Shown here piece by piece: positions 25,520-52,905 of a stretch of DNA of 64,000 nt. How positions within the stretch are numbered: position 1 is the stretch's first letter; each line of letters begins with the position of its first letter. Made by a program: the position numbers and the translations under genes. Location: the NCBI GenBank assembly GCA_945903605.1, contig CAMDOH010000004.1, positions 2,593 to 66,592 of the forward strand, given 5' to 3'. Below the pieces are notes generated by a model. That model saw nothing but the letters and a program-made list of their open reading frames with translations, was not told the origin of the DNA and did not search any database. Source of the stretch: Akkermansia muciniphila. Its GTDB lineage: Bacteria > Verrucomicrobiota > Verrucomicrobiia > Limisphaerales > UBA1100.

Positions 25520-25644
25520 GGAGTGCGCGAATTCTACGAGGCTGCGGCGCGGGCAGCAATCCCATTCGCGTGAGAGTGAAGTGTGTGGCACAACGCTTTC
25601 ACTTGCGTCCATCGGCAGGGGACATATCTTCAGCCGAACCCGAT

Positions 25645-26556
25645 ATGAAAAAGCCGATTCACTTCGCATTGTTTCCACTATTATTTGTAGCCTGCGTGTC
25701 TCCGACGGGGAGCGATTCAAAGGATGTGTTGTACAAGGCGCGTCCGCACACACCGCCCAAATCATTCACGCCCGGTATCGAAGGGCCGGGATGCGACAAG
25801 GCTGGGAATGTTTACGCCGTCAATTTTGCCAGGCAACAGACCATCGGCAAAACTGCGCCGAACGGGAAGTCGGAGGTCTTCGTTGTGTTGCCCGGAAAAA
25901 GCACTGGCAACGGCATCGTGTTCGATCCAGCCGGTTGGATGTACGTGGCCGATTATGTCGGGCACAACGTCCTGCGAGTGGACATGAAGACGAAAGTAGT
26001 GGAGGTGTACGCTCATAATCCGGCGATGAATCAGCCCAACGATCTGACCATTGCGCCCGACGGAACATTATTTGCGAGCGATCCGAATTGGGGAAACAAC
26101 ACCGGCCAACTCTGGCGCATCGACCCCAATGGATTGACCACGCGCTTGGCGGAGAACATGGGAACGACCAATGGCATCGAAGTCAGTCCCGATGGCCGCA
26201 CGTTGTACGTCAATGAAAGCAGACAGCTCAATCTTTGGGCCTTCGATATCACGGCCGAAAAGACCCTCGCTAACAAGCGGCTGCTGCGAAAATTTGAGGA
26301 TCACGGATTCGACGGGATGCGCTGCGACGTCGCAGGCAACCTGTATATCACGCGGTACGGAAAAGGAGTTGTGGCCGTGGTTTCGCCGAAGGGAGAATTG
26401 CTGCGCGAGATTGATGTGCTCGGCAAACAGCCATCGAACATTTGTTTTGGCGGGCCAGATGGGCGTACCGTTTATGTCACCGAAGTCGAACACGCCCGTC
26501 TGGTTTCATTCCGCGTCGAGACGCCCGGACTCGCTTGGAAACGCTGGCAGAAGTGA
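25645..26556 (+). CDS. SMP-30/gluconolactonase/LRE family lipoprotein
   Basis: I prefer the ATG at 25645, which gives MKKPIHFALFPLLFVACVS. Six-bladed propeller blocks include PNDLTIAPDGTLFASDP, TNGIEVSPDGRTLYV and PSNICFGGPDGRTVYVT. Confidence 0.85.
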   Translation: MKKPIHFALFPLLFVACVSPTGSDSKDVLYKARPHTPPKSFTPGIEGPGCDKAGNVYAVNFARQQTIGKTAPNGKSEVFVVLPGKSTGNGIVFDPAGWMYVADYVGHNVLRVDMKTKVVEVYAHNPAMNQPNDLTIAPDGTLFASDPNWGNNTGQLWRIDPNGLTTRLAENMGTTNGIEVSPDGRTLYVNESRQLNLWAFDITAEKTLANKRLLRKFEDHGFDGMRCDVAGNLYITRYGKGVVAVVSPKGELLREIDVLGKQPSNICFGGPDGRTVYVTEVEHARLVSFRVETPGLAWKRWQK

Positions 26557-33900: not shown

Positions 33901-35698
33901 CGCGTTTGCCCGAGCGGACGAGATGTGACCAGCCGAGATTCCATCCCCAGCCAAGCTGCAGGACTTTGTTCCAAAGATGAATGGACCACGCTTTATCGTT
34001 CGAGAAAATCAGGTCGTCGTAGCCATCGGAGTTGATATCGATGAAGCGCAGTCCGTTGTCACGGCCTTGATCATCGACGAGTGAGATTGCAGCGGGAATT
34101 TTGAATGGCGATGCGACCCACTGGGATACGGATTTGTTCCAAGCATAAATACCGTTCTGTTGCGGGTTGCTGACGATGAGTTCGCACTGGCCGTCGTTGT
34201 CGATGTCGCGCAGTCGCGCGCCGGCATCGAAGGCGGAGTTGAGTGCGACGGGTCTGCCGCCGACGTTGGGGAGTGCGAGGTTGTTGTCTTCGACCCATTT
34301 GTTCTCGATAAATCGCCAAGCACCGGAGCGGGTGATGAGGATGGTCTGGCGGTTGAGAATTCCGATGAGCGAGTTCATCGCATGCGGAGATTCTTTCGAG
34401 CCGGCCAATGTGACTGGAAATGTTGTGTCGTTCCATTTGCGCTGCGCAGGATCCCAAATCCGGGTGCGGCGAAGCTTTTCGTTGGCGATGATGACATCCA
34501 TCTGGCCGTCGTCGTTCAGATCGAGTAGTCGAACGCCGTTGTCGCCGCCGTTGATCGGGTTGCGGAGTGGCTGGCCAGCGAGCAGGTGTTGATCGATGCG
34601 TTGCTGCGCTTCAGCAAAAGTGAGGAACTTCACTCGATTGCCGTGTTGGGTGACGGTGTGATTGATGAACTCCACGATTTGTTCAGCCTTGATCCAACCG
34701 TGCGGATGAAAGATCCAAGGGAAGACGCCTTGTTTGATGACGATGGCGTCCATCGCCGCTTTCCAATCGGCGAGCGTGGTGGGGTTGTTGGGGCTGTGCA
34801 GATTGTTTGCTTCCCAATCGCTGGGGGCGATGGGAGGGAATTCCCAGCAGAGGCGGTTGATCACATACGGGTACGGATAATCCTCAATGGTTGTGCCGAA
34901 GAGTTCCATGGATCGCTTCACGATGGTGTTGGTTGCGATGGGGAGATATTTGCGGAATCGGTCTCGGCCATCTTTGTCGAGGACCAGTTCGCGCGGCAAT
35001 GTGGCATCGTTCGCGGTGAGCAGGCACATGATGGATGAATCGATGGACAAGAATTTTCCTGCGCGACTGGTGGAGTTGAAAATCTCGGAATAGAAGCGCG
35101 GGCTGGGCGAATTCATCGAGTCGCAACAAGGCATGCGAAAGGCGACAGGTCGGCCGACGGGCAATTGGTTCAGCAGATCAACTCCGCCATGATAGGTATC
35201 GAGTGCATTGGTGAAGCTGCCTTTTTGGAGCAGTGGGCAGGGATGCGCGAGCGTGTGGTTTTCCATCGAGAGTCCTTCCTTGAGCCACGAATGAATCTGC
35301 GTATTGGTCGGCGCGATGGCATTGCAAAAGATGCTGACGGGTGCGCGGCCGTCGATTTTCTTGAGTCTGGCGAGTATCGGCCGAAGAAAAGTTTCATATC
35401 GCGCGGGGTCGCGCATGTCGTCGATGGAAAGGATGACGACGGCTTCGACGCCGCTTTCGCCGACCCACTGAGGCGTGGTCAGTTTGGGGTGCGAGAGTCG
35501 GGCATGAAACGGATCGGATTCGTGCAGAAATACGTGTCGGTTGCCGGAGCCAGTAGCGGCGAACGCTGGGATTGATGTGAGTAGAGCGAAGATGATGGCG
35601 ATGGAACTGAATCGAGGTGGCACGGGGTAATCGTAAATGCGGTGTGAGTTCTGGCGAGGAAAAATTAGGGCGCTTGCAACCGATTGAGGTTCGCTCAC
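30929..35698 (-). CDS. Giant PVC-type heme-binding fusion protein: CE4 polysaccharide-deacetylase-like + FG-GAP/VCBS repeats + membrane-bound-dehydrogenase domain + HEAT repeats + C-terminal cytochrome c
   Basis: The maximal ORF is 1589 aa. A GTG at 35623 gives a better signal peptide (PPRFSSIAIIFALLTSIPAFAA). NodB-like motifs are SIDDM and NHTLAHP. FG-GAP units are DLNDDGQMDVII, DIDNDGQCELIV and DINSDGYDDLIF. The dehydrogenase-domain block is PEGFAVQLVAHEPLVLDPIAFDWGADGRLWVVEM. HEAT units follow. The heme motif is CAVCH. Confidence 0.85.
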   Translation of the reverse strand: MSEPQSVASALIFPRQNSHRIYDYPVPPRFSSIAIIFALLTSIPAFAATGSGNRHVFLHESDPFHARLSHPKLTTPQWVGESGVEAVVILSIDDMRDPARYETFLRPILARLKKIDGRAPVSIFCNAIAPTNTQIHSWLKEGLSMENHTLAHPCPLLQKGSFTNALDTYHGGVDLLNQLPVGRPVAFRMPCCDSMNSPSPRFYSEIFNSTSRAGKFLSIDSSIMCLLTANDATLPRELVLDKDGRDRFRKYLPIATNTIVKRSMELFGTTIEDYPYPYVINRLCWEFPPIAPSDWEANNLHSPNNPTTLADWKAAMDAIVIKQGVFPWIFHPHGWIKAEQIVEFINHTVTQHGNRVKFLTFAEAQQRIDQHLLAGQPLRNPINGGDNGVRLLDLNDDGQMDVIIANEKLRRTRIWDPAQRKWNDTTFPVTLAGSKESPHAMNSLIGILNRQTILITRSGAWRFIENKWVEDNNLALPNVGGRPVALNSAFDAGARLRDIDNDGQCELIVSNPQQNGIYAWNKSVSQWVASPFKIPAAISLVDDQGRDNGLRFIDINSDGYDDLIFSNDKAWSIHLWNKVLQLGWGWNLGWSHLVRSGKRGEPNSIPPFVRSGPHRDNGAWFHSNRLFVQNEDTAHLNANVEYRTFKELIAFPAPPPKSPQDSLDAIRVPEGFAVQLVAHEPLVLDPIAFDWGADGRLWVVEMGDYPKGVDGKGKPGGQIRILEDINGDGRYDKYTLFLDGLNFPTGVMPWRKGAIISAAPEIFYAEDTDGDGKADLRKTLFTGFSEGNQQHRVNGFQYGLDNWIYGANGDSGGTITSIANGSNTVINGHDFRFRPDTGQFQRQSGQTQFGRYRDDWGNWFGNNNPNWLWHYFLPEHYLARNTHLLTRSNKQMLGEYTDSRRVFPISPSIQRFNTPQSVNYLTSANSPSPYRDSLFGAAFENSIFISEPVHNLVHREVLTPTGLTFTSHRADKENGREFLASADNWFRPTMIKTGPDGALYIADMYRFVIEHPEWISPEMQQRLDLRAGHDMGRIYRVYPKSIPLRPIPRLDTLDTPALVAAIESPNGWQRDTVQRLLFERADPSARKPLAAIIANSKDPKVRLQALCSLDGIGAIDPVVLRGALNDTNPIIRAHAIRLCENGPLELALPRANDADVRVRYQLAFSLGEWKNPQAATVLVEIAIRDADNPFIQQAVLSSAVPHAAPMLRELCRHGAAQAPAAFITHLLDLTLEQGDHNALLQVLHDAFQKPDEQERFKLLSGLLDVLHKNDAAYNRIQAKASAELRLALSQIDGHIARARTQAEDSRVPLAVRIEAAQLLGREPAKSSFDAKLLAVLLQAQHPDGLQRAALRAIRNLRSAAAGTVLAGGWRKYSPAIRTELLATLIGRTEWIPATLGAIEQGTIGVGEIALPARQQILANPDAAIRSRAEKLFARVNADRAKVIQQFAAVSRLTGDPQLGAALYKQHCAVCHRFRAEGKEVGPDLGAAATKPIEELIVAIFDPNRALEQRYISYTVVLKNNNELAGVITTETETSVTVRTALGTEETLLRKDIQSITGGGLSLMPEGLEAALMPKDLADLLAFLKSNPKK

Positions 35699-40698: not shown

Positions 40699-42519
40699 AT
40701 GTCGACACCCAAGCCATCCAATCCGCAACTCGCACCGTCTGCTGACGCGGCCAACTCGGAGCCGGCCAAGCCGCTCACATTTTCCGAGCTACTCGAACTA
40801 GCTGAGGAAGGCCGCCCTTCGGCGCAATTCCGTGTCGCTGTCAAATACGATGAGGGCGACGGCGTTCCGCAGAACGACAAGGCAGCCTTCTATTGGTACA
40901 AGAAAGCGGCAGACCGCAATTATCGTTGGGCACTCAACAATCTCGGCGTGATGTACGCCACTGGCCGCGGCACAAAACAGAATCAGCGCAAGGCAGCCGA
41001 ATTGTATCGGCGTGGCGCGGAGCGAGGCTGCTCGCAGGCGCAATGCAATTTCGGGTGGGTCTGCGCAACCGGTCGCGGTGTGAAACGCGACGCTGTCCAA
41101 GCGGTGAAATGGTATCGGATCGCCGCAGCGCAGGGCGACGTTCAGGCGCAGAATAATCTTGGTGTGATGATGCAGGCTGGTGATGGCACTGAGCACGATG
41201 AATCCGAAGCGGTAAAATTATTCCGACAAGCTGCGGAGAAGGGAAATCGATTTGGTCTCTCCAATCTCGGCATTGCTTTGTCAGAAGGCAGGGGAGTTGA
41301 GGCCAACATACCAGAAGGAATCAAATCGCTTCGCGAGGCCGCGAAACAGAGCGAAGTGCAGGCGAGTTATTATCTCGGTTGCCTGTTCGCATCGGGAAAC
41401 GGGGTTGGAGCCGACCCGATCGAGGCAGAACGATTATTCCGGTTAGCTGCAGCGGAAGATCACGCAGGCGCACAAAATAATTTGGGAATATTGCTGGCGT
41501 CCGCTGGCAGCTCCGTTGCCGATCCTGCAGAGGTCGCAAAGTGGTATCGGCGAGCTGCAGATCAAGGACTGGTATCGGCGCAGTACAATCTGGCGATGCG
41601 GCTGAAGACAGGCAACGGAGTTGGAGAAGACAGGAAAGAGGCAGCGGTTTGGTTTAGGAAAGCAGCGGAGCAGGGGCATGTGGGAGCGGCGTATGAGTTG
41701 GGGCAATGGTTGGAGAGAGAGGACGGAACAAATTTAGAAGTGTGGAGATGGTACGGAGAAGCGGCTGGGGGAGGAGTATTGGCGGCGCAAGTGAAGTATG
41801 CGGATTGGTTGGTGAGGAGCGGGAAAGTGAAAGAATCGATTGAGTGGTACGAGAAGGGAGCGCGGAGTGGGGATGCGCATTCGCAGATGAATCTGGCGAC
41901 GTACATGGAAGGGGGGATGGCGAAGGCAGATGATCTGGGAGCAGCAGGATGGTATCGGAAAGCAGCGGAGCAGGGAGTTGCCAAAGCGCAGTTGAGGATG
42001 GGCGAGATGTTAGAGAGTGGAGAAGGAGCTGGGCAAGATTTGGCGGGAGCGGTGAATTGGTATCGGAAGGCGATGGAGAACGGGGTGATGGAAGCGAGGA
42101 TGAATTTGGCGCGTGGCTTATTGAGTTCGGAACGAACTGCGGGCAACTTGCTTGAAGCGGTGAAATTGCTGAGGCCATTTGCGGAGGAGGGAGATGTGGA
42201 ATTGCAGATGACATTGGGACAGTTGTACCGAGACGAGGCTGAACCAGTGCGCGACGACATCCAATCGATCAAGTTCCTGAAACTGGCGGCCGAACAAGGT
42301 CACGCGGGGGCGCAGTTGCTTTTGGCGGACATGTACCAGACGGGGCGCGGAACGGATTCGAGTTTGCCGAAGGCTTATTGGTGGTACCAATTGGTCTCCC
42401 TTCGTGGAGTGGAATTGGCTCGTCACAATTCAGCCGTGATTCTGCGAATGATGTCTAAAGAGGAAATGGTGGAAGCGCAGGCGTTGTTATTGCAATCGAC
42501 TGGGCTGACGCCTGCCTGA
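40699..42519 (+). CDS. Sel1-repeat (TPR-like) protein, about 14-15 repeats
   Basis: 606 aa. It contains iterated units such as A..WYRKAAEQG...AQ.NLG.M...G.GV..D. No signal peptide is evident. Confidence 0.85.
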   Translation: MSTPKPSNPQLAPSADAANSEPAKPLTFSELLELAEEGRPSAQFRVAVKYDEGDGVPQNDKAAFYWYKKAADRNYRWALNNLGVMYATGRGTKQNQRKAAELYRRGAERGCSQAQCNFGWVCATGRGVKRDAVQAVKWYRIAAAQGDVQAQNNLGVMMQAGDGTEHDESEAVKLFRQAAEKGNRFGLSNLGIALSEGRGVEANIPEGIKSLREAAKQSEVQASYYLGCLFASGNGVGADPIEAERLFRLAAAEDHAGAQNNLGILLASAGSSVADPAEVAKWYRRAADQGLVSAQYNLAMRLKTGNGVGEDRKEAAVWFRKAAEQGHVGAAYELGQWLEREDGTNLEVWRWYGEAAGGGVLAAQVKYADWLVRSGKVKESIEWYEKGARSGDAHSQMNLATYMEGGMAKADDLGAAGWYRKAAEQGVAKAQLRMGEMLESGEGAGQDLAGAVNWYRKAMENGVMEARMNLARGLLSSERTAGNLLEAVKLLRPFAEEGDVELQMTLGQLYRDEAEPVRDDIQSIKFLKLAAEQGHAGAQLLLADMYQTGRGTDSSLPKAYWWYQLVSLRGVELARHNSAVILRMMSKEEMVEAQALLLQSTGLTPA

Positions 42520-42563: not shown

Positions 42564-43898
42564 ATGAACTCACCCCATCGCATCTCCATACTCACATCTC
42601 TAGCGCTGTTTATTTCAGTGGCGCTCAATGCGGCGATGGTTCCGCAGGCAGCGATCAAAGAAATGATCGCCAAGGAAAACGCATCGCTGGTCGATCTGTA
42701 CAAACATTTCCACGCCACGCCCGAGCTGTCTTTTCGTGAGACGAAATCGGCCGAGCGAATCGCCTCCGAGTTGAAGCTGGCCGGATTTGAAGTGACGACC
42801 AAAGTGGGGGGGCACGGCGTCGTTGCCGTGATGCGCAATGGTCGTGGGCCGACGGTTCTCGTGCGTGCGGATCTCGATGGATTGCCGGTGAAAGAAGAGA
42901 CGGGGCTGCCGTATGCCAGCAAACACACGATGCTTGATGAAGCGGGCAATCTGGTTTCGACGATGCACGCTTGTGGCCACGACGCGCACATGGCGTGTTT
43001 GATCGGCACCGCGAGGATGCTGAGCCGGCTCAAGGAAAATTGGCAGGGGACGTTGGTGATGATTGGCCAGCCTGCTGAGGAAAGGGGTGGCGGCGCAAAG
43101 GCGATGCTCGAAGATGGCTTGTACAAACGGTTCCCCGTTCCGGACTACGGATTGGCACTGCATGTCGCCGCCGATTTGCCCACGGGCACCATCGGTTATG
43201 TGGAAGGGTTCGCCATGGCAAATGTGGATTCGGTGGACATCATCGTGCGCGGTATTGGCGGACACGGCGCTCAACCGCAATCGGCAAAAGATCCGATCGT
43301 GCTTTCAGCGCAAATTATTCTCGCGCTCCAAACCATTCGCAGTCGCGAGATTCATCCTCTTGAGCCGGCGGTGGTAACGGTCGGCTCCATTCACGGCGGA
43401 ACGAAACACAACATTATTTCCGACGAAGTCCGCATGCAGCTCACGTTGCGTTCATACAACGATGAGGTGCGAAAACAGATGATCGATGCCATCAGCCGGA
43501 TCACGCGCGGACTGGGACAGGCCGCAGGACTTCCCGACGACAAATTACCGATCGTCGAATTGAAGAACGAGCACACACCGGCTGCGTACAACGACCCAAA
43601 GCTGGCCAAGCGCGCGCGTGTCGTGTTCGAAGAATGGCTCGGGCCGGGAACGGTGCTGGATCGAAAACCTTCCATGGGCGGCGAAGACTTCGGTCAATTT
43701 GGACGGACAGAACACAAGGTGCCGGTGTTTTTGTTTTTCGTCGGGTCGATCAATTCCGCGCGATTCAAAGAGAGTCTGCGATTGGGGAAAGCTCTGCCGT
43801 CGGCACATTCAAGCCGCTACGCACCCGATCCCGATCCGACGATCAAGACAGGCGTCACCGCGATGACGGCGGCAGTACTGGAATTGATGCGCCGTTGA
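42564..43898 (+). CDS. M20D family amidohydrolase (N-acyl-amino acid / hippurate hydrolase-like), secreted
   Basis: 444 aa. The signal peptide is SILTSLALFISVALNA. The motifs MHACGHDAH, GQPAEE and GGEDF are present. Confidence 0.85.
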   Translation: MNSPHRISILTSLALFISVALNAAMVPQAAIKEMIAKENASLVDLYKHFHATPELSFRETKSAERIASELKLAGFEVTTKVGGHGVVAVMRNGRGPTVLVRADLDGLPVKEETGLPYASKHTMLDEAGNLVSTMHACGHDAHMACLIGTARMLSRLKENWQGTLVMIGQPAEERGGGAKAMLEDGLYKRFPVPDYGLALHVAADLPTGTIGYVEGFAMANVDSVDIIVRGIGGHGAQPQSAKDPIVLSAQIILALQTIRSREIHPLEPAVVTVGSIHGGTKHNIISDEVRMQLTLRSYNDEVRKQMIDAISRITRGLGQAAGLPDDKLPIVELKNEHTPAAYNDPKLAKRARVVFEEWLGPGTVLDRKPSMGGEDFGQFGRTEHKVPVFLFFVGSINSARFKESLRLGKALPSAHSSRYAPDPDPTIKTGVTAMTAAVLELMRR

Positions 43899-43931: not shown

Positions 43932-46235
43932 ATGAAGCCTTACAAGCGCGCCGTGCCGAATCCGTTTCTGCGATACCCGATCCCCTCGCTGGGTGTGCTC
44001 TTGGCGATTGTCGCCGCAGCACTGCTGTTCGGTCGGATCGAAGTGGATTCAGAAATGCGGGCATTGCTGGAGGGCGATCAACGAAACTTGGACAGTTACG
44101 AGAAGGTAAATCGCATTCTTGGCGATGACATCGCGGTCATCGTTAGCATCGATTGTCCTGAAGTTTTTTCTCCCGACAACATCGCCGTATTGAGGCAAGT
44201 CACTGCCGAGTTGAAGCAGCTCAAGGGTTACACGGGAATCAGCGCAGTGACAGATGCCTTCCGTCCATTCCGTGCAGGATTTGGCATCCGATGGGATCCG
44301 CTCATACCCACCGAGGGCAATGTGGATTATGCGAAGCTCAAGGAATGGGCCATCGCTCATCCGCTGGTGCGGAACATCATGATCGCGCCCGATGGCCGGC
44401 ACACCATCGTGATGGCCAACTTTAACAGGCCATTTGAGACGACCCTGCAAATCCGAAAGTTCCGTTCCGAAGTGGACGCCGCCCTGGCTCCATTGAACGC
44501 CGCGAAACTTCCTTTTCACTTGCTGGCATTTCCATTCATCGAGCAGGAGATTCTCGACACGTTGCGCGTGGATATGAAGCAGTTCATTCCATTGGCATTT
44601 TTGCTGGCTGTATCAGTTTTGGCTGTGACATTCCGATATTCCAAACGACTCGTCATCTGGGTGCTTGCCAATCAAGTGGCCGGTTTATTATTACTCCCCG
44701 GTCTGCTTCAGATCACCGGGCTGAGTGTGAGTGTGTTCACAGTCATTCTGCTTCCCTTGCTCGCCGCTGTTCATCTGGCACTGCTCTCGCATGCAGGCAC
44801 CGCTTTTCAACGCGCGCTAAAAACAGGCGTTGCCGGAACGGAAGGGATCGGGCAGATGCTGCGCGAATCGTTCAAGCCGTGCGTGTATTCGGCGGTGACG
44901 ACGGCCGTCGGCCTCGCTTCATTTGCCTCCAGTGACATGGCTCAATTACGGGACTTTGGATTATTGGGCGCGCTGGGAGTATTGATGTTGTTGGTGCTCA
45001 CGTTTGGTCCCGGGATTTCTTTGCTTCAATTGATGTTCAAATCGCACGATGGTTCCAAATTGCAGTCATCCGAAACTGCGACCAACATTGGATGGAGCGT
45101 GCGTTGGACAGATATTCTCGTCCGGAACACACGCTGGATTTGGATGGGGATGCTGGGTTGCGTGTTGCTGGCATCCGTGGGGGTGGGGCGAATCCGGACC
45201 GACATCCGCGCGGTGGAATTTTTAAGCCCGAAAAGTCCGTCGCGGCTGGCGTTTGAAGAGATGGACCGCGTTTATGGCGGCATCAACGTGGTTCAAATCC
45301 AGTTTGATTCAGGCAAATCCAACGGGGTCATCAGCCCGGAATTTCTGAAATACATGGCGCGCATCGAACGGCACGCTTCCGAGAAAACAGGCGTCACCGG
45401 AGTATTTTCCTACGGCCAATTATTGGCGGCGCTCAATGAAGTGTGGGAAGGATATCGTCCCGGAACCTTGCAGTTGCCAGAGAATCCGATTCTCATCGCG
45501 ACGCTCTCGTATCTTGTCCGGGCTTCAGAGGAATCACTCCCATTCATCAGGACGCTTTGCGACGAATCCTTCCGTGTAGCCCACTTGACCGTGCGCACGC
45601 GCGACATGCCCGCCGATGAATATCTGAACTTCGTGCGCGAGCTGGAACAATTCGCCAACCAAGGCAAGCCTCCGCAAGTGACAGTGTCTGCGCAGGAAGG
45701 CATCCACTCGATACTCGAGGCGGACCGGCGGATTTTGCGCAGCTTGCAGCGCAGCTCGATGGTGACCTTCGGAGTCGTCGGCGTGGTGTTGCTGCTTTTG
45801 TGGCGGTCGCCGTTGCTCGTGCTGTTGGCATTGGCTGCCAATGCTGTGCCAATCGGTTTAGTCGTCGCTCTGCAAGGATTCGCAGGAGTGCCGCTCAACT
45901 CCATCACCATCATGGTTGGATCAATCGCCTTCGGTGTGGTGATGGATGACACGATTCATTTCATCACGCATTGGCGGGAGGAACGGCTAGCCGGCAAAAC
46001 GGCCATCGCCGCCGCGCGCGCCGCGCTCGAGGCAAAGGGCAGGGCGATGGTTTGCACGAGCCTTGTGTTGATCGCGATTGTTGGCGTTTTCCTGCTCTCC
46101 TCATTTCCGCCGGTGGTTCATTTCGGACTACTTTCTGTCATGGGCTATACAGCGACACTCGGTGCGGCACTGATATTATTACCCGCTGTACTGGGCAGTT
46201 GGATTGAACCAAGAACTCGGAACGACTCTCATTGA
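43932..46235 (+). CDS. MMPL/RND superfamily transporter (HpnN-like lipid exporter architecture)
   Basis: 767 aa. The layout is two blocks, each a TM helix, a large periplasmic loop and a 5-TM bundle. This is typical of MMPL/hopanoid-type RND proteins. Confidence 0.8.
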   Translation: MKPYKRAVPNPFLRYPIPSLGVLLAIVAAALLFGRIEVDSEMRALLEGDQRNLDSYEKVNRILGDDIAVIVSIDCPEVFSPDNIAVLRQVTAELKQLKGYTGISAVTDAFRPFRAGFGIRWDPLIPTEGNVDYAKLKEWAIAHPLVRNIMIAPDGRHTIVMANFNRPFETTLQIRKFRSEVDAALAPLNAAKLPFHLLAFPFIEQEILDTLRVDMKQFIPLAFLLAVSVLAVTFRYSKRLVIWVLANQVAGLLLLPGLLQITGLSVSVFTVILLPLLAAVHLALLSHAGTAFQRALKTGVAGTEGIGQMLRESFKPCVYSAVTTAVGLASFASSDMAQLRDFGLLGALGVLMLLVLTFGPGISLLQLMFKSHDGSKLQSSETATNIGWSVRWTDILVRNTRWIWMGMLGCVLLASVGVGRIRTDIRAVEFLSPKSPSRLAFEEMDRVYGGINVVQIQFDSGKSNGVISPEFLKYMARIERHASEKTGVTGVFSYGQLLAALNEVWEGYRPGTLQLPENPILIATLSYLVRASEESLPFIRTLCDESFRVAHLTVRTRDMPADEYLNFVRELEQFANQGKPPQVTVSAQEGIHSILEADRRILRSLQRSSMVTFGVVGVVLLLLWRSPLLVLLALAANAVPIGLVVALQGFAGVPLNSITIMVGSIAFGVVMDDTIHFITHWREERLAGKTAIAAARAALEAKGRAMVCTSLVLIAIVGVFLLSSFPPVVHFGLLSVMGYTATLGAALILLPAVLGSWIEPRTRNDSH

Positions 46236-47506
46236 ATAATCTCGACGCGCCCGACGCCAGCGATAGGATGACTTGCGTAGCGCAGAGGCGCATGAACACA
46301 ACCGTGCTTTCCCAAACAAGCGGAGAAACCGCATTGCCAAAAAGTTCCGGCAACCACTCCAAACTCACCCCGCCGCGTGGCTACGCCTTGGAAGACATGG
46401 CGGCTCGTCGCGCTTGGCTGGAAGAAAAAATCGGTCGGCCCCTGCCTGAATTCAAGCTCGATTCGCCCGAGGATTTTCAAGGACTGCTCGAGAATCAAGT
46501 CGGTTACCTCGGCCTTCCGTTATCCGTGGCCGGACCGCTCAAAATCGAAGGCACCTACGCACGCGGGGAATTCCAAGTGCCGCTCTGCACTGTGGAAGGC
46601 ACGCTGTCCCTTTCGATGACGCGCGGTTTATATCTCGCCCATCTTTCCGGTGGATTCAAATCGCAGCATCTGCGGCAGGAACTTTCTCGCAGCCCCATTT
46701 TTATCTTCGATGAGATCGAAGACGCCGCTGCGTTTGCCACTTGGATAGATCGTCAATTTGCGCCGATCAAAGCCGCTGCTGAGACTTCCACACGACACGG
46801 CAAACTTCTGCGCATCGAAAAACAGATCGTCCACAACCGGGTGATTCTCAATCTGGTTTATTCCACGGGCGAGGCTGCCGGGCAGAACATGGTGACCGTC
46901 GCCACAGAACACGCCTGCAACCACATCGCAGCAACAGCGCGCGACCTCAAGCTGAAGCGTTGGCTGATCGAGAGTAATTATTGTGGCGACAAAAATGCCG
47001 CCACCGGCACGATGATGCGCGGTCGCGGACATCACGTCATTTGCAGTGCGCTCATCGAGGAGCGTTTTCTGCGCAAACTTTTTCGAACCACTCCCGAGGC
47101 AATGCTCGCCAGTTGTGTCGATAAACATTTGGGTTCCCAACTCGGTGGCGTGCTCGGGATGAACATGCACAATGCCAATGCGCTCGCGGCGATTTACATC
47201 GCCACGGGGCAGGACGCCGCTTGCGTGGCCGAAAACTGTGTGGGCATCACCACTTATGAGGCACGCGGCAACGACCTGTATTGCACGTTGACGATGCCTT
47301 CGATCACCGTGGGCACAGTTGGCGGCGCCACGCGGCTTCATCAACAGCGCGCCAATCTGGATATGCTCGGTTGTTCCGGTCCGGACTCTTCTAAAAAACT
47401 TGCTGAAATCATCTGCGCGGCAAGCCTCGGGCTGGAACTTTCGTTGGGCGGAGCGATCGTCAGTCACGAGTTCGCCACGGCCCACGCACAATTCGGGAGG
47501 CGGTGA
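46232..47506 (+). CDS. HMG-CoA reductase family (class I-like) protein, divergent
   Basis: The maximal ORF starts at a TTG at 46232, overlapping the MMPL stop. Alternative ATGs lie at 46268 and 46292. Motifs seen are ENQVGYLGLPLSVAGP, TVEGTLSLS, TGEAAGQNM (compare DAMGMNM), CGDKNAA, ATGQDAACVAEN and GTVGGAT. Confidence 0.8.
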   Translation: MNNLDAPDASDRMTCVAQRRMNTTVLSQTSGETALPKSSGNHSKLTPPRGYALEDMAARRAWLEEKIGRPLPEFKLDSPEDFQGLLENQVGYLGLPLSVAGPLKIEGTYARGEFQVPLCTVEGTLSLSMTRGLYLAHLSGGFKSQHLRQELSRSPIFIFDEIEDAAAFATWIDRQFAPIKAAAETSTRHGKLLRIEKQIVHNRVILNLVYSTGEAAGQNMVTVATEHACNHIAATARDLKLKRWLIESNYCGDKNAATGTMMRGRGHHVICSALIEERFLRKLFRTTPEAMLASCVDKHLGSQLGGVLGMNMHNANALAAIYIATGQDAACVAENCVGITTYEARGNDLYCTLTMPSITVGTVGGATRLHQQRANLDMLGCSGPDSSKKLAEIICAASLGLELSLGGAIVSHEFATAHAQFGRR

Positions 47507-48232
47507 GTGTCCGCATTTTCCGAACTACTCGAACGTACTCCGCTCGAGCCTGAATACGCCTATTTGACGGAGGATCCATCCGCCACCGCGCGATGGCTTC
47601 GCGTGGGATTCAACGGCTTCTGCTGGTCGCTTTTCAATCTCTGGTGTCCGCTCACTGCCGTGGGACGCGAACGTCTCCCCAAACCGCCCTTTGTCCTCTG
47701 CAGCAATCACAGCAGCCACATGGACAGCGCCGCGCTCATGTGGGCTTCAGGTTTGGGCATCGATCGGTTTGGCATGCTGGCCGCCAAGGATTATTTCTTT
47801 GATAACAAACGTCGGAAAAGTTTTCTGCCACTGCTGATGAATCTGATTCCCGCCGAGCGCCAAACCAACCGCCACGCCATCACGCGGTTCCTCGTCGCCT
47901 GTCGCGCTTTCGTTCGCTTTCGAGAACGGTGCCTGATTATTTATCCCGAGGGAACGCGTTCTGTGACTGGGCAGATGGCTCCCTTCAGGCGCGGCGCGGC
48001 GATGCTCGCAGTCGAATTGGGATTGCCGCTCGTGCCTGCTTATGTGTGCGGCACATTCAAGGCGATTCCCAAAGGCAGCAACCTTGTTCGCCCCACGCGA
48101 TTGACTGTCACATTTGGCGACCCCGTCGATTACAAACAATTTTCTGCAGCTACCGCCAGCGCGCAATACGACGCGGTGAACGCCGAGCTGGAGCGACGTG
48201 TCCATCAACTTGCATCCACACATGCCCATTGA
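47507..48232 (+). CDS. PlsC-family (lysophospholipid/DHAP-type) acyltransferase
   Basis: 241 aa. The GTG start lies immediately after the upstream stop. The HX4D motif is NHSSHMD. The block IIYPEGTRS is present. Confidence 0.85.
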   Translation: MSAFSELLERTPLEPEYAYLTEDPSATARWLRVGFNGFCWSLFNLWCPLTAVGRERLPKPPFVLCSNHSSHMDSAALMWASGLGIDRFGMLAAKDYFFDNKRRKSFLPLLMNLIPAERQTNRHAITRFLVACRAFVRFRERCLIIYPEGTRSVTGQMAPFRRGAAMLAVELGLPLVPAYVCGTFKAIPKGSNLVRPTRLTVTFGDPVDYKQFSAATASAQYDAVNAELERRVHQLASTHAH

Positions 48233-49958
48233 AGTGCCGCACATGAAATGGTGGGGTTGGGGAGTCGAAGGTTCCTCCTTCGAGATCTCCGGAAAACCCG
48301 GCCTCTTTCCCTATCTCAAACGAGAATTGGGCGTCACCGATGAACAGGTCACCACTCCGCCGGTTCCACTTGCTGATGTGCGCATGCCTGAACGCAAACT
48401 CAACGGTCCATTCGAAGCTGCACTCGAGAAAGTGTTGCGGGCCGACCAGATTCGGAACGACCGCCACGAGCGTCTCATTCACGCCTTCGGCAAAAGCTAT
48501 CGCGACTTGTGGCGTGTCCGTCGCGGAGAAGTTGAACGCGCACCCGACCTCATCATCTACCCCGAGTCGGAACAGGATGTCGTCGCTGTGATGGCTGCCG
48601 CATTGGAGCACAGCGCCGTCATCATCCCATTCGGTGGCGGATCTAACATCGCCGGTTGCCTGGAGCCTCGCGACAAGTCCGGCCGTTACATCGTTTCGCT
48701 CGACATGGGGAGGATGGACCGCGTGCTGTCCGTCGACAAAGACTCGCTCATCGCGCGCATCCAACCCGGCGGTTGGGGAATGCGGATGGAGAATCAGCTT
48801 CGCGAGCACGACGTGACACTCGGCCATTTCCCGGACTCGTTTCTTTACTCGACACTCGGCGGTTGGATCGCCACGCGTTCGGCAGGTATGCAGAGCGATG
48901 TGTACGGCAAGATTGAGGACATGGTTGTCGCACTCCGGATGGTGACACCCGCTGGCACGATCATCACGCGCACGGTCCCGAAATGTTCCAATGGCATCGA
49001 CGTGAAACAGCTTTGTATCGGGAGCGAAGGGATACTTGGCGTGATCACCGAGGCGACCATGCGCGTCCACCCACTGCCTGAGAGCCGCAAGATTTACGGA
49101 TATCTATTTCCAGATTTTGAGAGCGGCGCAGCGGCGCTCAAAGAATGCACCCGGCTCAATATCTGGCCGGTGATTGCGCGGCTCAATGACCCGAAAAAAA
49201 CCGCACTCTCATTTGCATTCAAGGGCACAAAGACTCCCTTCAAAGCACTGCTCACCCAAGTTGTGAAGTGGTGGATCCACCATGTGAAGGGAATCGATTT
49301 CACGAAATGTTGCATGATGATTGTCGCGTTCGAAGGCGACAGCGCAACGGTCGAGCGCACGCGTTTGCTGGCCGATGGAGTGTATTGCAAACATGGGGCC
49401 GCCGGACTGGGCACCGAACCCGGCCGTGGATTCGAGAAGGCCAAATTTGATTTCCCGCACCTGCGCGATTTTGTCATGGACCGCAACATCATGGCCGATG
49501 TGAGCGAGACCGCCACCACTTGGGCGAATCTGCTTCCATTTTATCGTGACACCAAACGTTCGATCGAACAGGCGATCACCGATACCGGCAGCCTGCCGTG
49601 GGTCGGCTGTCACATCAGCCACAACTACCATACCGGCGCGAGTCTCTATTTTACATTCGGTTGTCGGCAATGTCCCGGCCGCGAAATGGAGCAATATCTG
49701 TATGTGAAAAAAGCGGCTGAAGATGCGTTCATGCGCAATGGCGGAACCCTTTCGCATCATCACGCCGTTGGCACTGAGCATCTGCCATGGGTCGAGGCTG
49801 ATATTTCACCCGCAGGTGTCCGTGCTGTGCGAGCGCTCAAGGATGGGATTGACCCCAAAAACATCATGAACCCCGGCAAGATAATTCCATCCGATCAGCC
49901 ACTGGCCGATTGGGGGTTGTCCGGCGACTCTTCCAAACTTTTTTCCGCTGGCAAATGA
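48222..49958 (+). CDS. FAD-linked oxidase of the alkyldihydroxyacetonephosphate synthase (AGPS) type
   Basis: The maximal ORF is 48198..49958. Candidate ATGs are at 48222 and 48243. The N-terminal MKWWGWG resembles the AGPS KWNGWG motif. The PCMH FAD domain block is IIPFGGGSNIAGC. The C-terminal GGTLSHHHAVG matches the AGPS HHH loop. Confidence 0.8.
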   Translation: MPIEVPHMKWWGWGVEGSSFEISGKPGLFPYLKRELGVTDEQVTTPPVPLADVRMPERKLNGPFEAALEKVLRADQIRNDRHERLIHAFGKSYRDLWRVRRGEVERAPDLIIYPESEQDVVAVMAAALEHSAVIIPFGGGSNIAGCLEPRDKSGRYIVSLDMGRMDRVLSVDKDSLIARIQPGGWGMRMENQLREHDVTLGHFPDSFLYSTLGGWIATRSAGMQSDVYGKIEDMVVALRMVTPAGTIITRTVPKCSNGIDVKQLCIGSEGILGVITEATMRVHPLPESRKIYGYLFPDFESGAAALKECTRLNIWPVIARLNDPKKTALSFAFKGTKTPFKALLTQVVKWWIHHVKGIDFTKCCMMIVAFEGDSATVERTRLLADGVYCKHGAAGLGTEPGRGFEKAKFDFPHLRDFVMDRNIMADVSETATTWANLLPFYRDTKRSIEQAITDTGSLPWVGCHISHNYHTGASLYFTFGCRQCPGREMEQYLYVKKAAEDAFMRNGGTLSHHHAVGTEHLPWVEADISPAGVRAVRALKDGIDPKNIMNPGKIIPSDQPLADWGLSGDSSKLFSAGK

Positions 49959-49961
49959 TCC

Positions 49962-50756
49962 ATGAGTTTTCCTGCGACAGCAGTCATCACCGGCGCCTCG
50001 GCTGGTTTGGGCCGAGAGATGGCCATTGAGCTGGCTCGGCGCGGAACTCGCCTCGCACTCGTGGCGCGTGGCGAAGAAGGACTGCGCGAGACGGCACGAT
50101 TGTGCGTGGCTGCGGGCGCGGTGGAGCCCATCATTGTGACTGCCGATGTGACACGCGCTGAAGACTGCGTTCGCCTCGTGAACGAATCTGCCGCGGGACT
50201 CGGCACGATCGATTGCCTCATCAACAATGCGGGTCAAAGCATGTGGGCCCCCTTTGAGTCGGTGGATGACCCGGCGATCTTTCAACGGCTCATGGCTGTG
50301 AATTATCTCGGTCCAGTGTGGTGTGCGCATGCGTCTTTACCTCACTTGCGTCGCAGTGGCGGGATGCTCGTGATGATCGCCTCCGTTCAATCCAAAATCG
50401 GCGCGCCCTATCACACTGGCTACACGGCCGCCAAACATGCGTTGGAGGGATTCACGGAGTCGTTGAGGATGGACCTCGATGGTAGCGGCGTTGGGATTCT
50501 CACCGTGTATCCATCGTGGATTAGCGGCACGCGATTGCGGCATTCCTCGGAAGGTAAAAATGGTAATGGGAGTGACAAAGGAAGCGACGCCGTTTCATCC
50601 ATGGATTGTGCCAGACGCATCGTTGGCGCCATCGAGCGCCGTGCGACCAGTTTGTTTATACCTCGCTGGATGGCGTTGCTGCCGTTCTTCCGGTGGGCAT
50701 TTCCTAGTCTGCTGAGGCATTTCGTGCTACGTAAGGTGAAACGGTACCACGAATAA
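49962..50756 (+). CDS. Classical short-chain dehydrogenase/reductase
   Basis: 264 aa, beginning 3 nt after the upstream stop. The motifs are TGASAGLG, NNAG, and S...YTAAK (the catalytic Ser/Tyr/Lys). Confidence 0.9.
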   Translation: MSFPATAVITGASAGLGREMAIELARRGTRLALVARGEEGLRETARLCVAAGAVEPIIVTADVTRAEDCVRLVNESAAGLGTIDCLINNAGQSMWAPFESVDDPAIFQRLMAVNYLGPVWCAHASLPHLRRSGGMLVMIASVQSKIGAPYHTGYTAAKHALEGFTESLRMDLDGSGVGILTVYPSWISGTRLRHSSEGKNGNGSDKGSDAVSSMDCARRIVGAIERRATSLFIPRWMALLPFFRWAFPSLLRHFVLRKVKRYHE

Positions 50757-51416
50757 ATGAGTGAACCATCACACATGCGATTGGGTTACCGCTTCGCGTG
50801 GCTGATGGGGCGGGCCGCTTGCAGCACCTATTTTCGTTGGCGAGTCGTGCAACGCGAACGCGTGCCGGCCACCGGCGGCGTGGTCCTCGCCACCAACCAT
50901 GCCAGCTATTTCGACCCCGTTTTCGTTGGTTCCGCCTTACCTCGCCCAGTTTATTATCTCAGCAGGTACACGGCATTTGAATTCCCGCTCGGGAATTTCT
51001 TGCGGCGCGTGCTCAATATTGTTCCTGTAGATTTGCAGGGTGGTGCCAGCCGTGGATTTCGGACGATTCTAAGTCGACTGGAAGGCGGCGCGGCGATCCT
51101 CATTTTTCCTGAAGGGACGAGGACCTACGATGGAAAGTTGCAAAGCCCCAAAGCGGGCATCGGGTTTACCATCATCAAAACCAGCGTGCCTGTGGTTCCC
51201 GTGTGTATCATCGGCAATTATGATGCCTACGGTCGGCACCGCCGATTTCCATTGCCCCGCCGAGTCGTCATCAAATTCGGACAACCCCTGTTGTTCAGTG
51301 ATGAGCGTGAGCGTGCCAAAACAGCCTCGAAGGAAGAACTGCGCGAACTTTACCAATCCGTCGCAACCCAAATGATGGATGCCATTGGGCGATTGCAGTC
51401 CGATTCAATTCCTTGA
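50757..51416 (+). CDS. PlsC-family 1-acyl/alkyl-glycerol-3-phosphate acyltransferase
   Basis: 219 aa. The ATG lies immediately after the upstream TAA. The motifs NHASYFD, IFPEGTRT and VPVVPV are present. Confidence 0.85.
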   Translation: MSEPSHMRLGYRFAWLMGRAACSTYFRWRVVQRERVPATGGVVLATNHASYFDPVFVGSALPRPVYYLSRYTAFEFPLGNFLRRVLNIVPVDLQGGASRGFRTILSRLEGGAAILIFPEGTRTYDGKLQSPKAGIGFTIIKTSVPVVPVCIIGNYDAYGRHRRFPLPRRVVIKFGQPLLFSDERERAKTASKEELRELYQSVATQMMDAIGRLQSDSIP

Positions 51417-51447
51417 AACCAATCGGTGCCGCACAGCCCATCCACAA

Positions 51448-52905
51448 ATGAACATCACCCAACACACCAAAGGAACTCCGACGGCTGCTGTCGATTGCGC
51501 CGTTGTTTTTCTGCGCGATGGACAACGTCCGCCGAAGGCCATTGACGCCGCCACCGACGGGTTGATCTCCGACCTCATTGAAAAGAAAGAATGGAACGGT
51601 CGACCGGGAGAATCGCTCATCCTCCATCGGCCACACGGACTGAAGGCGCCCCGGCTCATGCTCGTGGGCGGCGCGAAGAAATGGGATCCTCGCACCGCAT
51701 TCGAGTCCGCTGCTCATGCGGCGCGTGCGGCTGTTCGTTGCGGCAAACACATCTCGCTCGAAATAGAAAACACCGCACTGACCCGTCCCATCGTCGAGGG
51801 ATTCATTTTTGGCAATGGCAATTCCGATGAACACAAAACCGCCGGGCAACGCCCCTCCATCGAGTCGCTCACCGTGTGCGTGACAGCGCGATCGACTAAA
51901 ATCGCACGCGACATCGACCGTGCGCGAATTTCTGCCGAGGCTACGAATCAGGCTCGCCGCGTGATTAATCTGCCGCCCAATTCTCTCGGTCCAGTGGAGT
52001 TGGCTGACCTCGCCACCGACTTGGGAACCAAAGCTGGAATGGATGTGGAAGTATTCGATGAACACCGCCTGCGCGAATTGGGATTCGGTGCGCACTTGGC
52101 TGTGGGACAGGGGTCGCTGCGCCCGCCGCGACTCGTTCGCCTGTCATGGTCGCCCAATCGAGCTGATGCCCAACGCCATCTTTTTCTCGTCGGCAAAGGA
52201 ATTACTTTCGATTCCGGCGGACTCTCGCTCAAAACAGCATCGCAAATGGAGACGATGAAATATGACATGGCAGGAGCCGCCACGATGCTCGCCGCCATGA
52301 TTGCCATCGCTCAACTCCGCCTGCCGATGCGAGTGACGGCTCTGCTCGCACTCGCAGAGAACATGCCGTCGGGCACAGCCATGCGGCCGGGAGACATCGT
52401 TCGCGCGCTGAACGGAAAGACGATTGAGATTTTGAACACCGACGCCGAAGGTCGGCTCGTTTTGGCAGACGCTCTGGCACATGCCGTTAATCTGGGGGCG
52501 ACGCACATCATCGACGCGGCGACTCTCACAGGCGCGGTGAGTGTAGCGCTCGGCGATGTGAATGCGGGGCTGCTCACGAATTCCGTGCCATTTGCAAATG
52601 GACTTGTCGCAGCGGGCACTCAGGCAGGCGAACGTTACTGGCGCTTGCCGATGGATGATGATTATCTTGCGCCGATGCGCGGCGAGTTTTCCGATTTGCG
52701 GAATTCTTCTGCAAACCGCAAGGCGGGCACGATCACGGCCGCAAAGTTTCTTGAGCAATTCGTAGGTGGCGTGCCTTGGATCCACTTGGACATTGCTGGA
52801 GTGGGATGGGCCGAGAAGAATCGCGCCGACCGTTGTTCCGGTGCCACTGGCCACAGCGTGCGCACGCTCATCCGGTTCGTCGAGGCGTTGAGTGGACGGA
52901 GTTAG
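51448..52905 (+). CDS. pepA: Leucyl aminopeptidase (M17)
   Basis: I prefer the ATG at 51448. The motifs VGKGITFDSGG, NTDAEGRLVLAD and HLDIAG are present. Confidence 0.9.
   Translation: MNITQHTKGTPTAAVDCAVVFLRDGQRPPKAIDAATDGLISDLIEKKEWNGRPGESLILHRPHGLKAPRLMLVGGAKKWDPRTAFESAAHAARAAVRCGKHISLEIENTALTRPIVEGFIFGNGNSDEHKTAGQRPSIESLTVCVTARSTKIARDIDRARISAEATNQARRVINLPPNSLGPVELADLATDLGTKAGMDVEVFDEHRLRELGFGAHLAVGQGSLRPPRLVRLSWSPNRADAQRHLFLVGKGITFDSGGLSLKTASQMETMKYDMAGAATMLAAMIAIAQLRLPMRVTALLALAENMPSGTAMRPGDIVRALNGKTIEILNTDAEGRLVLADALAHAVNLGATHIIDAATLTGAVSVALGDVNAGLLTNSVPFANGLVAAGTQAGERYWRLPMDDDYLAPMRGEFSDLRNSSANRKAGTITAAKFLEQFVGGVPWIHLDIAGVGWAEKNRADRCSGATGHSVRTLIRFVEALSGRS

Follow-up and report, generated by a model that had tools for sequence, protein, structure and literature searches.

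A class-I HMG-CoA-reductase-fold enzyme encoded beside alkylglycerone-phosphate synthase: a candidate fatty alcohol supplier for bacterial ether lipids

We analyzed a stretch of 64,000 nucleotides from contig CAMDOH010000004.1 of the Akkermansia muciniphila assembly GCA_945903605.1 (Verrucomicrobiota), called the window below. At positions 46232-47506 of the forward strand, this window encodes a reductase with the fold of class-I HMG-CoA reductase (HMGR), separated by one gene from an alkylglycerone-phosphate synthase (AGPS), the alkyl-transferring enzyme of ether-lipid synthesis. We consider it likely that the reductase is a fatty-alcohol-forming enzyme of the FcrA family that feeds the neighboring AGPS, and not an enzyme of the mevalonate pathway. 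This reading is based on the biochemistry of a purified homologue, on the substitutions S684E and L862F (human numbering) together with a missed HMGR score cut-off, on an operon that lacks a fatty acyl-CoA reductase (FAR) only, and on a linkage to AGPS that is limited to one clade of reductases.

A fatty acyl-CoA-reducing activity was published in February 2025 for FcrA, a homologue of class-I HMGR (Grossi et al. 2025, ISME J 19:wraf035; PMC11948995). The purified enzyme of Ca. Promineifilum breve (Pb-FcrA, CUS01882.1), the only FcrA assayed, used NADPH and acyl-CoAs of C14 and longer, was insensitive to simvastatin, and reduced neither HMG-CoA nor free aldehyde. Its specificity was ascribed to changes at Ser684 (Glu in Natronomonas pharaonis, E360), Lys735 (printed as 'Lys795'; generally a small residue) and Leu862 (a bulky residue). 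A further trait ascribed to FcrA is a hydrophobic pocket of elongated shape for the substrate in a tetramer model, located where subunits meet. According to the same study, FcrA accounts for most bacterial 'class-I HMGRs', these are found in genomes that lack a mevalonate pathway, and some FcrA might feed AGPS, which is encoded nine genes away in Ca. Promineifilum breve (PMC11948995). The original prediction for this locus, made from the sequence, had proposed that the reductase was recruited to make the alcohol for AGPS. The homology to Pb-FcrA, the signature residues, the operon and the linkage described below support this idea. The accompanying claim of a new function for the HMGR fold, however, is out of date: FcrA has been published, and the feeding of AGPS already suggested.

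The open reading frame (ORF) 46232-47506 (+) translates into 424 amino acids. The Pfam profile HMG-CoA_red (PF00368) matched this protein from end to end (profile positions 3-368 of 368, E 3e-103), and the motifs quoted in the original prediction (ENQVGYLGLPLSVAGP, TVEGTLSLS, CGDKN, ATGQDAA, GTVGGAT, EAAGQN and VSHEF) were all found in the translation. Among solved structures, its best matches were two class-I HMGRs, the archaeal 6hr7 from Methanothermococcus thermolithotrophicus (E 3e-78) and the human enzyme (E 1e-56). Identity to canonical class-I HMGRs was 37-40%, with about 40% for the archaeal enzyme. The NCBIfam model TIGR00533, an equivalog model for HMGR, gave 282.5 bits and did not reach its cut-off of 441.8 bits. 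Structure modeling had also been suggested earlier. An AlphaFold2 monomer model built on 88 relatives had a pLDDT of 83.9 and was found by Foldseek to superpose on class-I HMGR structures (6hr7, 1dqa) with TM scores of 0.77-0.84.

Residues 1-42 of the ORF, which starts with TTG, were disordered in the model, and they are missing from most homologues. This TTG at 46232 overlaps the stop codon of the upstream gene (TTGA), and an ATG at 46292 carries AGAGG three bases upstream. Based on the disordered N-terminus, the shorter homologues and the AGAGG sequence, translation probably starts at ATG 46292.

To compare single positions, residues were numbered by alignment to human HMGR, anchored at the C-terminus on S872 and M867, and tabulated over 121 relatives of the AGPS-linked clade (see below) and more than 80 genome loci. 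The human catalytic residues E559, K691, D767 and H866 correspond to E122, K254, D328 and H418 of the reductase. Each of them was present in 121 of 121 clade relatives, and the complete tetrad was found in all genome loci that aligned across those positions. A proper alignment thus confirms the earlier expectation that the four residues are retained. Only the His had been misplaced: H412 in VSHEF aligns with human G860 (in relatives N 61%, D 25%, H 14%), and the catalytic H418 sits in EFATAHAQFGR. A reading in which the catalytic His is replaced by Glu was rejected, as anchoring on S872/M867 gives H866 = H418 and L862 = F414.

The substrate region differs from that of canonical enzymes. Human S684 is replaced by E247 and human L862 by F414, four residues ahead of H418; both Glu and Phe were found in all 121 clade relatives. 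At position 684, nearly all FcrA-like loci have E or D, whereas human, archaeal and Streptomyces HMGR have S. At position 862, all FcrA-like loci have F or W and the canonical enzymes L. The Glu at 684 would be expected to repel the carboxylate of HMG. In addition, human K692 is replaced by N255 (Asn in 98% of the clade), and K704, the Lys of human GRGK, by H267 (invariant in the clade). The HMGR of a Streptomyces mevalonate cluster, by comparison, retains S, K and L at 684, 692 and 862. The changes from DAMGMN to EAAGQN and from DKK to DKN, which had been noticed by hand, were confirmed by the alignment. Other FcrA-like proteins lack, or only rarely (<5%) show, a further group of substitutions that is invariant in the clade, namely A556C, V583H, D586Q, K704H, S774N and G849L, to which K692N and D653E are added.

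The reductase gene is part of a series of genes with the following order, all on the forward strand and spaced by -35 nt (overlap) to +33 nt (gap). Here, DHAP stands for dihydroxyacetone phosphate, ACP for acyl carrier protein, SDR for short-chain dehydrogenase/reductase, and AT1 and AT2 for the two acyltransferases.

42564..43898, +, M20 amidohydrolase/peptidase (Pfam Peptidase_M20, E 2e-31), an upstream neighbor kept in Verrucomicrobiales-type loci
43932..46235, +, MMPL/RND (HAE3-type) membrane transporter (Pfam MMPL at E 3e-20; NCBIfam matches to HAE3, at E 6.5e-42, and to an HpnN-like model; none of these reaches its cut-off)
46232..47506, +, FcrA-like class-I HMGR-fold reductase (Pfam PF00368, residues, model), proposed to convert fatty acyl-CoA/ACP to fatty alcohol
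47507..48232, +, AT1, PlsC-family acyltransferase (Pfam PF01553, E 6e-18; PlsC 5kym, E 3e-16), proposed DHAP acyltransferase (GNPAT role)
48198..49958, +, AGPS, alkylglycerone-phosphate (alkyl-DHAP) synthase (matches to 2uuu and 4bby; Pfam FAD_binding_4 and FAD-oxidase_C)
49962..50756, +, SDR (Pfam adh_short, E 1e-45; NCBIfam PRK06181, 239.7 bits, above the cut-off of 215), proposed acyl/alkyl-DHAP reductase
50757..51416, +, AT2, second PlsC-family acyltransferase (Pfam PF01553, E 8e-23), proposed to acylate sn-2 of 1-alkyl-glycerol-3-phosphate
51379..52905, +, M17 leucyl aminopeptidase, which closes the gene series after AT2

The adjacent AGPS-type enzyme, on which the original prediction had relied, is real. 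The protein encoded at 48198-49958 aligned over its full length with the Dictyostelium alkyl-DHAP synthase (ADPS, 2uuu; E 3.9e-139), including the HHH motif, and with mammalian AGPS (4bby; E 4e-89). On identical contigs, the gene call (L090) starts at the position equivalent to 48222. Both motifs of AT1, HX4D (NHSSHMD) and the PEGTR block, are intact. AT2 likewise contains HX4D (NHASYFD) and PEGTR, and its best NCBIfam match is an acyl-ACP-dependent acyltransferase. Superfamily and position in the pathway suggest the DHAP specificity of AT1, the substrate of the SDR and the role of AT2. For the MMPL protein, export or flipping of the finished lipid is a possible role.

This gene set parallels the AGPS route (GNPAT, AGPS, acyl/alkyl-DHAP reductase, AGPAT) step by step, and FAR alone is missing. 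Among the 49 ORFs scanned across the 64-kb window, we found no gene of the mevalonate or methylerythritol phosphate (MEP) pathway, which agrees with the earlier statement on mevalonate genes, and no conventional FAR gene. The same 49 ORFs contained no member of the CarF/PEDS1-type desaturase family, and alkyl (plasmanyl) rather than alkenyl ethers are therefore expected. Between 39.5 and 55.8 kb, promoter-like sites were not above chance, and terminator-like sites were weak only, so that no operon boundary could be derived from them.

The lipid genes are bracketed by the M20 and M17 peptidase genes. Both peptidases occupy the same positions in two related Verrucomicrobiales contigs, L001 and L002 (M20 61% and M17 50% identical), and not in other phyla. 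A protein of 606 amino acids that consists almost wholly of Sel1 repeats (40699-42519, +; Pfam E 1e-78) is encoded two genes 5' of the MMPL gene.

Relatives of the reductase with 54-65% identity were found in Verrucomicrobiota (Verrucomicrobiales), Planctomycetota, Ignavibacteria, Ca. Porifericomitaceae, Halothiobacillaceae, Neomarinimicrobiota and Gemmatimonadales. To quantify the linkage, we counted distinct loci whose reductase has at least 54% identity and whose downstream sequence could be read (n = 12). Genomes with the operon include OZ243038.1 (Ca. Porifericomitaceae) and CP065001.1 (Ignavibacteriales). AT1 and AGPS lie directly downstream of the reductase in 11 of these 12 loci (L001-L003, L008-L015), which cover at least six phyla, and AT1 is always located between the other two genes. 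An SDR gene follows AGPS in five loci (L001, L003, L008, L013 and L014). An AT2 orthologue was seen only in L001/L002, i.e., in the Verrucomicrobiales-type operon, and the MMPL gene is in the same position in L001/L002 and L090/L091, again only in loci of this type. Of 72 loci with a reductase at most 45% identical, none had an AGPS gene within 10 kb. Among more distant representatives of 50% identity clusters, one reductase with 48% identity is followed by AGPS and one with 46% by an acyltransferase.

The original prediction had also asked whether operon-linked homologues form a separate clade. In a neighbor-joining (NJ) tree, a distance method, of 88 sequences with three canonical outgroups, all 100 bootstraps recovered the linked sequences as one clade. 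This clade branches within the FcrA-like group, and the canonical trio (human, archaeal, Streptomyces mevalonate cluster) splits off in 83 of 100 bootstraps. Within the clade, identities range from 50 to 74%; those to other FcrA-like proteins are 30-42% (mean 36%). No HMG-CoA synthase or mevalonate-kinase family was present among the called neighbors of the related loci. A contrasting case is the Streptomyces locus L005 with the order mvk-mvaD-pmk-fni-HMGR-HMGS. In the wider family, the reductase domain is fused to AMP-binding and PP-binding (FadD-ACP) modules, which fits a role as acyl-thioester reductase. All clade loci retrieved are metagenomic contigs or metagenome-assembled genomes (MAGs). 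On plasmids, tblastn gave no hits other than distant HMGR/FcrA-like genes of Vibrio, Streptomyces and Sinorhizobium.

Based on these data, we propose the following mechanism. The reductase gene would share a transcript with the other genes of an AGPS-type ether-lipid route, and the enzyme would bind a long-chain acyl-CoA (or acyl-ACP) as its predicted substrate. Two hydride transfers from the predicted cofactor NAD(P)H would lead through a thiohemiacetal and an enzyme-bound aldehyde. The leaving thiolate would be protonated by H418, which sits on the C-terminal helix, and the fatty alcohol would be released. Catalysis would depend on the retained tetrad E122/K254/D328/H418, with the HMG pocket remodeled by Ser684->Glu, Leu862->Phe and Lys692->Asn. 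AT1 would then make 1-acyl-DHAP, and AGPS would put the reductase-derived alcohol in place of the acyl group, yielding 1-O-alkyl-DHAP. The SDR would reduce the ketone of this intermediate to 1-O-alkyl-glycerol-3-phosphate, AT2 would acylate sn-2, and the MMPL transporter may translocate the lipid. In this scheme, the reductase would stand in for the Rossmann-type FAR of animals and Myxococcus (MXAN_1675).

Several observations weigh against this reading. The third FcrA signature, the loss of Lys735, does not hold for this reductase under an ungapped alignment. Human K735 lies in NINKNL. Counted without gaps, 44 residues after the catalytic Lys (the distance also found in the human and N. pharaonis enzymes), the equivalent residue is K298, and HMMER pairwise alignment gives the same; MAFFT and hmmalign shift by one residue, to D297. 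In the clade, this column contains K in 49% and C, L, I, M or S in 51%, and since only 49% have K, a Lys is not required there. R590 is also kept. Moreover, the clade is as near to archaeal HMGR (40%) as to the FcrA-like subgroup with Trp at 862 (35-38%; e.g., Anaerolineales L074), and its placement within FcrA comes from an NJ tree with three canonical outgroups (83%) that included neither Pb-FcrA (CUS01882.1) nor N. pharaonis FcrA. We infer that the Trp-862 subgroup, whose members carry N-terminal extensions, contains the characterized FcrA. The assignment of the reductase to FcrA rests on the published signature residues and on this subgroup. One clade member, L004 from a Planctomycetota MAG, has no acyltransferase and AGPS neighbors and adjoins a transposase. 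Finally, the activity proposed for the clade is deduced from homology.

Some of these points would also fit an HMGR-fold thioester reductase that acts in the same ether-lipid pathway on another substrate or gives another product. Such an enzyme might use acyl-ACP, might be restricted in its chain or take an unusual one (for example branched, hydroxy or dicarboxylic), or might release an aldehyde whose reduction is finished by another enzyme. The clade has its own set of invariant or nearly invariant substitutions (A556C, V583H, D586Q, K704H, S774N and G849L; K692N and D653E), the accessory domains (Lad or ACP) of the characterized subgroup are absent from it, and a Lys is retained at the K735 position in half of its members. 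Acyl-ACP is a common substrate of bacterial lipid enzymes, and the best NCBIfam match of AT2 is an enzyme of this kind. However, AGPS requires a free primary fatty alcohol, and the conserved core of reductase, AT1 and AGPS contains no second candidate reductase. The catalytic set for a four-electron reduction is intact, including the thiolate-protonating His. Pb-FcrA did not reduce free aldehyde (PMC11948995), so that both reduction steps would take place on the enzyme without release of the aldehyde. We regard a different substrate or product as unlikely.

It is far less probable that the cluster does not serve membrane ether lipids at all. In that case, an AGPS-like flavoenzyme and the reductase would act on other substrates, as in the synthesis of a secondary metabolite or the catabolism of alkylglycerols or wax esters, and the reductase would work mainly in the oxidative direction. 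Some class-II HMGRs are indeed degradative, the clade loci retrieved are all metagenomic contigs or MAGs, and M20 and M17 peptidase genes flank the cluster in Verrucomicrobiales loci. These peptidases are not kept outside Verrucomicrobiales loci, however, the match of AGPS to its eukaryotic counterpart spans the whole protein and includes the HHH motif (E 3.9e-139), and the genes match five known biosynthetic steps one for one.

The least probable explanation, which we consider hardly credible, is a genuine HMGR that makes mevalonate for isoprenoids and merely happens to lie beside lipid genes. It could draw on the full-length class-I fold with its intact tetrad, the roughly 40% identity to a characterized archaeal HMGR, the retained R590, a Lys that coincides with or adjoins the K735 position, and the public annotation of the relatives as 'hydroxymethylglutaryl-CoA reductase', but it is contradicted by a score of 282 bits against the equivalog cut-off of 441.8 bits, by changes, invariant or nearly so, at positions where true HMGRs keep L, K and S (Leu862->Phe, Lys692->Asn and Ser684->Glu, of which the last would repel the carboxylate of HMG), by the lack of any mevalonate gene among the scanned ORFs of the window, by the AGPS linkage kept across phyla, and by published results that bacteria with only an FcrA-type homologue have no mevalonate pathway and that Pb-FcrA is inactive on HMG-CoA (PMC11948995).

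With the reductase taken as an alcohol-forming enzyme, we favor, with less confidence, a broader interpretation. The cluster would be a self-contained, FAR-independent operon for plasmanyl (1-O-alkyl-2-acyl) glycerolipids, in which the alcohol for AGPS comes from a dedicated and previously undelimited HMGR-fold clade marked by K692N, K704H and D653E. The unit of reductase, acyltransferase and AGPS would have been inherited or transferred as a whole among Verrucomicrobiota, Planctomycetota, Ignavibacteria, Marinisomatota, Gemmatimonadota and Gammaproteobacteria. If this is true, these uncultured groups become candidates for the origin of non-isoprenoid alkyl-glycerol ethers that marine and sediment lipid records contain.

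An HMGR fold acting as a fatty acyl-CoA reductase has already been published. What is new here is the distinct clade linked to the AGPS operon and the tighter genomic evidence for the link from FcrA to AGPS, and the advance is incremental. In the literature, we found no earlier description of a reductase-acyltransferase-AGPS operon beyond the remark of Grossi et al. Metagenomic surveys reported agps homologues in Verrucomicrobiota, Marinisomatota and other phyla and did not address the source of the alcohol (PMC11868695). Surveys that screen only agps, elbD or ger are blind to the alcohol supply, and the linked reductase clade would be a more specific marker of a potential for alkyl ether lipid synthesis. 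An FcrA-type assignment would also fill the missing FAR step of a bacterial AGPS pathway and result in a compact five-gene cassette suited to testing or to heterologous production of ether lipids. The annotation as 'HMG-CoA reductase', taken at face value, would wrongly imply mevalonate metabolism in genomes of the PVC (Planctomycetes, Verrucomicrobia, Chlamydiae) and FCB (Fibrobacteres, Chlorobi, Bacteroidetes) groups and of Gemmatimonadota.

FcrA-like loci outside the AGPS-linked clade (L016-L087; e.g., L059:10001-14617, L018:10001-16799, L032 of Coxiellaceae and L056 of Luteolibacter) have a different conserved neighborhood. A UbiA-family membrane protein is encoded directly downstream (28 loci), then a protein of about 800 amino acids with PPDK_N and PEP-utilizers swivel domains (40 loci); blastp with single references for the UbiA and PPDK_N neighbors gave 28 and 37 loci, respectively. 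A polytopic membrane protein of about 440 amino acids without a Pfam match is often next (19 loci). This arrangement suggests a second route, in which the product of the reductase would be phosphorylated and then transferred by a UbiA-type enzyme. The route is apparently undescribed; one literature search returned nothing about it.

Many FcrA-like domains are fused at the C-terminus to an APH/EcKL-type kinase (representatives P0135, P0148, P0155, P0160 and P0167), and these fusions echo the dikinase neighbor of the loci outside the clade. P0167 (1454 amino acids) combines the kinase with N-terminal AMP-binding and PP-binding domains. N-terminal AMP-binding domains without a kinase were found in P0125 and P0131, and single fusions contain PilZ or DUF3419. 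One divergent 'HMG-CoA reductase' (33% identical) is encoded on the Sinorhizobium meliloti plasmid pMl1 (L007; CP140923.1, 109720-110964). Its residues at the R590 and 862 positions are K and F, respectively, and its gene is located between those for an acyl-CoA carboxylase beta subunit and a biotin carboxylase/biotin carboxyl carrier protein (BCCP), near genes for an indolepyruvate ferredoxin oxidoreductase and an MmgE/PrpD protein.

Elsewhere in the window, the reverse strand encodes a protein of 1589 amino acids with DUF7133, HEAT, FG-GAP and cytochrome c domains (30929-35698, -) and one of 1104 amino acids with GSDH, CBM9 and cytochrome c domains (22451-25765, -). Several proteins with an N-terminal methylation motif are present as well. 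Very large DUF7133/GSDH cytochrome c proteins and proteins with the N-terminal methylation motif are typical of PVC-group bacteria. Along with the gene order common to the window and Verrucomicrobiales contigs, they point to a Verrucomicrobiota-like source.

Compared with known systems, the reductase is closest in its features to FcrA. It shares with FcrA the class-I HMGR fold, the E/K/D/H tetrad, Ser684->Glu (N. pharaonis E360), a bulky aromatic residue in place of Leu862, and DA[AS]GQN for DAMGMN, and reductases of this type likewise occur in bacteria that are not expected to use mevalonate. The differences are an identity of only about 35-38% to the Trp-862 subgroup, Phe instead of Trp at 862, the lack of a Lad or ACP accessory domain, a Lys at the K735 equivalent under ungapped alignment, and the clade-specific K692N, K704H and D653E. 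Its gene lies inside an acyltransferase-AGPS operon, whereas FcrA is encoded beside a wax ester synthase/diacylglycerol acyltransferase (WS/DGAT) or nine genes away from AGPS.

With canonical class-I HMGR (EC 1.1.1.34; 1dq8/1dqa, 6hr7), the enzyme has in common the fold, the catalytic residues, the C-terminal helix with its His and, presumably, the two-step hydride transfer. It differs by S684E, K692N, L862F and an altered cofactor-loop motif, fails the NCBIfam equivalog cut-off, has no mevalonate genes nearby, and falls on the non-canonical side of the tree.

The cluster as a whole resembles the AGPS pathway of eukaryotes and myxobacteria (M. xanthus MXAN_1676-1675-1674; PMC13012113): the AGPS is orthologous, a PlsC-family acyltransferase adjoins it, an SDR and a second acyltransferase are present, and the genes are clustered as in Myxococcus. 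In the Myxococcus AGPS operon, however, a FAR-acyltransferase fusion (MXAN_1675) is used (PMC13012113), whereas the alcohol step of the window cluster is assigned to an HMGR fold, and not to a Rossmann-type FAR or such a 'FARAT' fusion. The window cluster also has an MMPL gene attached, and the 49 ORFs scanned across the window include no PEDS1/CarF family. A further parallel is ElbD of Myxococcus (Lorenzen et al. 2014, as cited in later studies). Like the proposed route, ElbD supplies the alkyl-glycerol ether lipids of bacteria with a fatty acyl group in reduced form, and it combines acyl activation, carrier, reductase and PlsC-like functions. ElbD, however, unites several domains in one protein, among them a FAR-type reductase domain, and does not depend on AGPS, whereas the window encodes these functions in separate genes and with another reductase fold.

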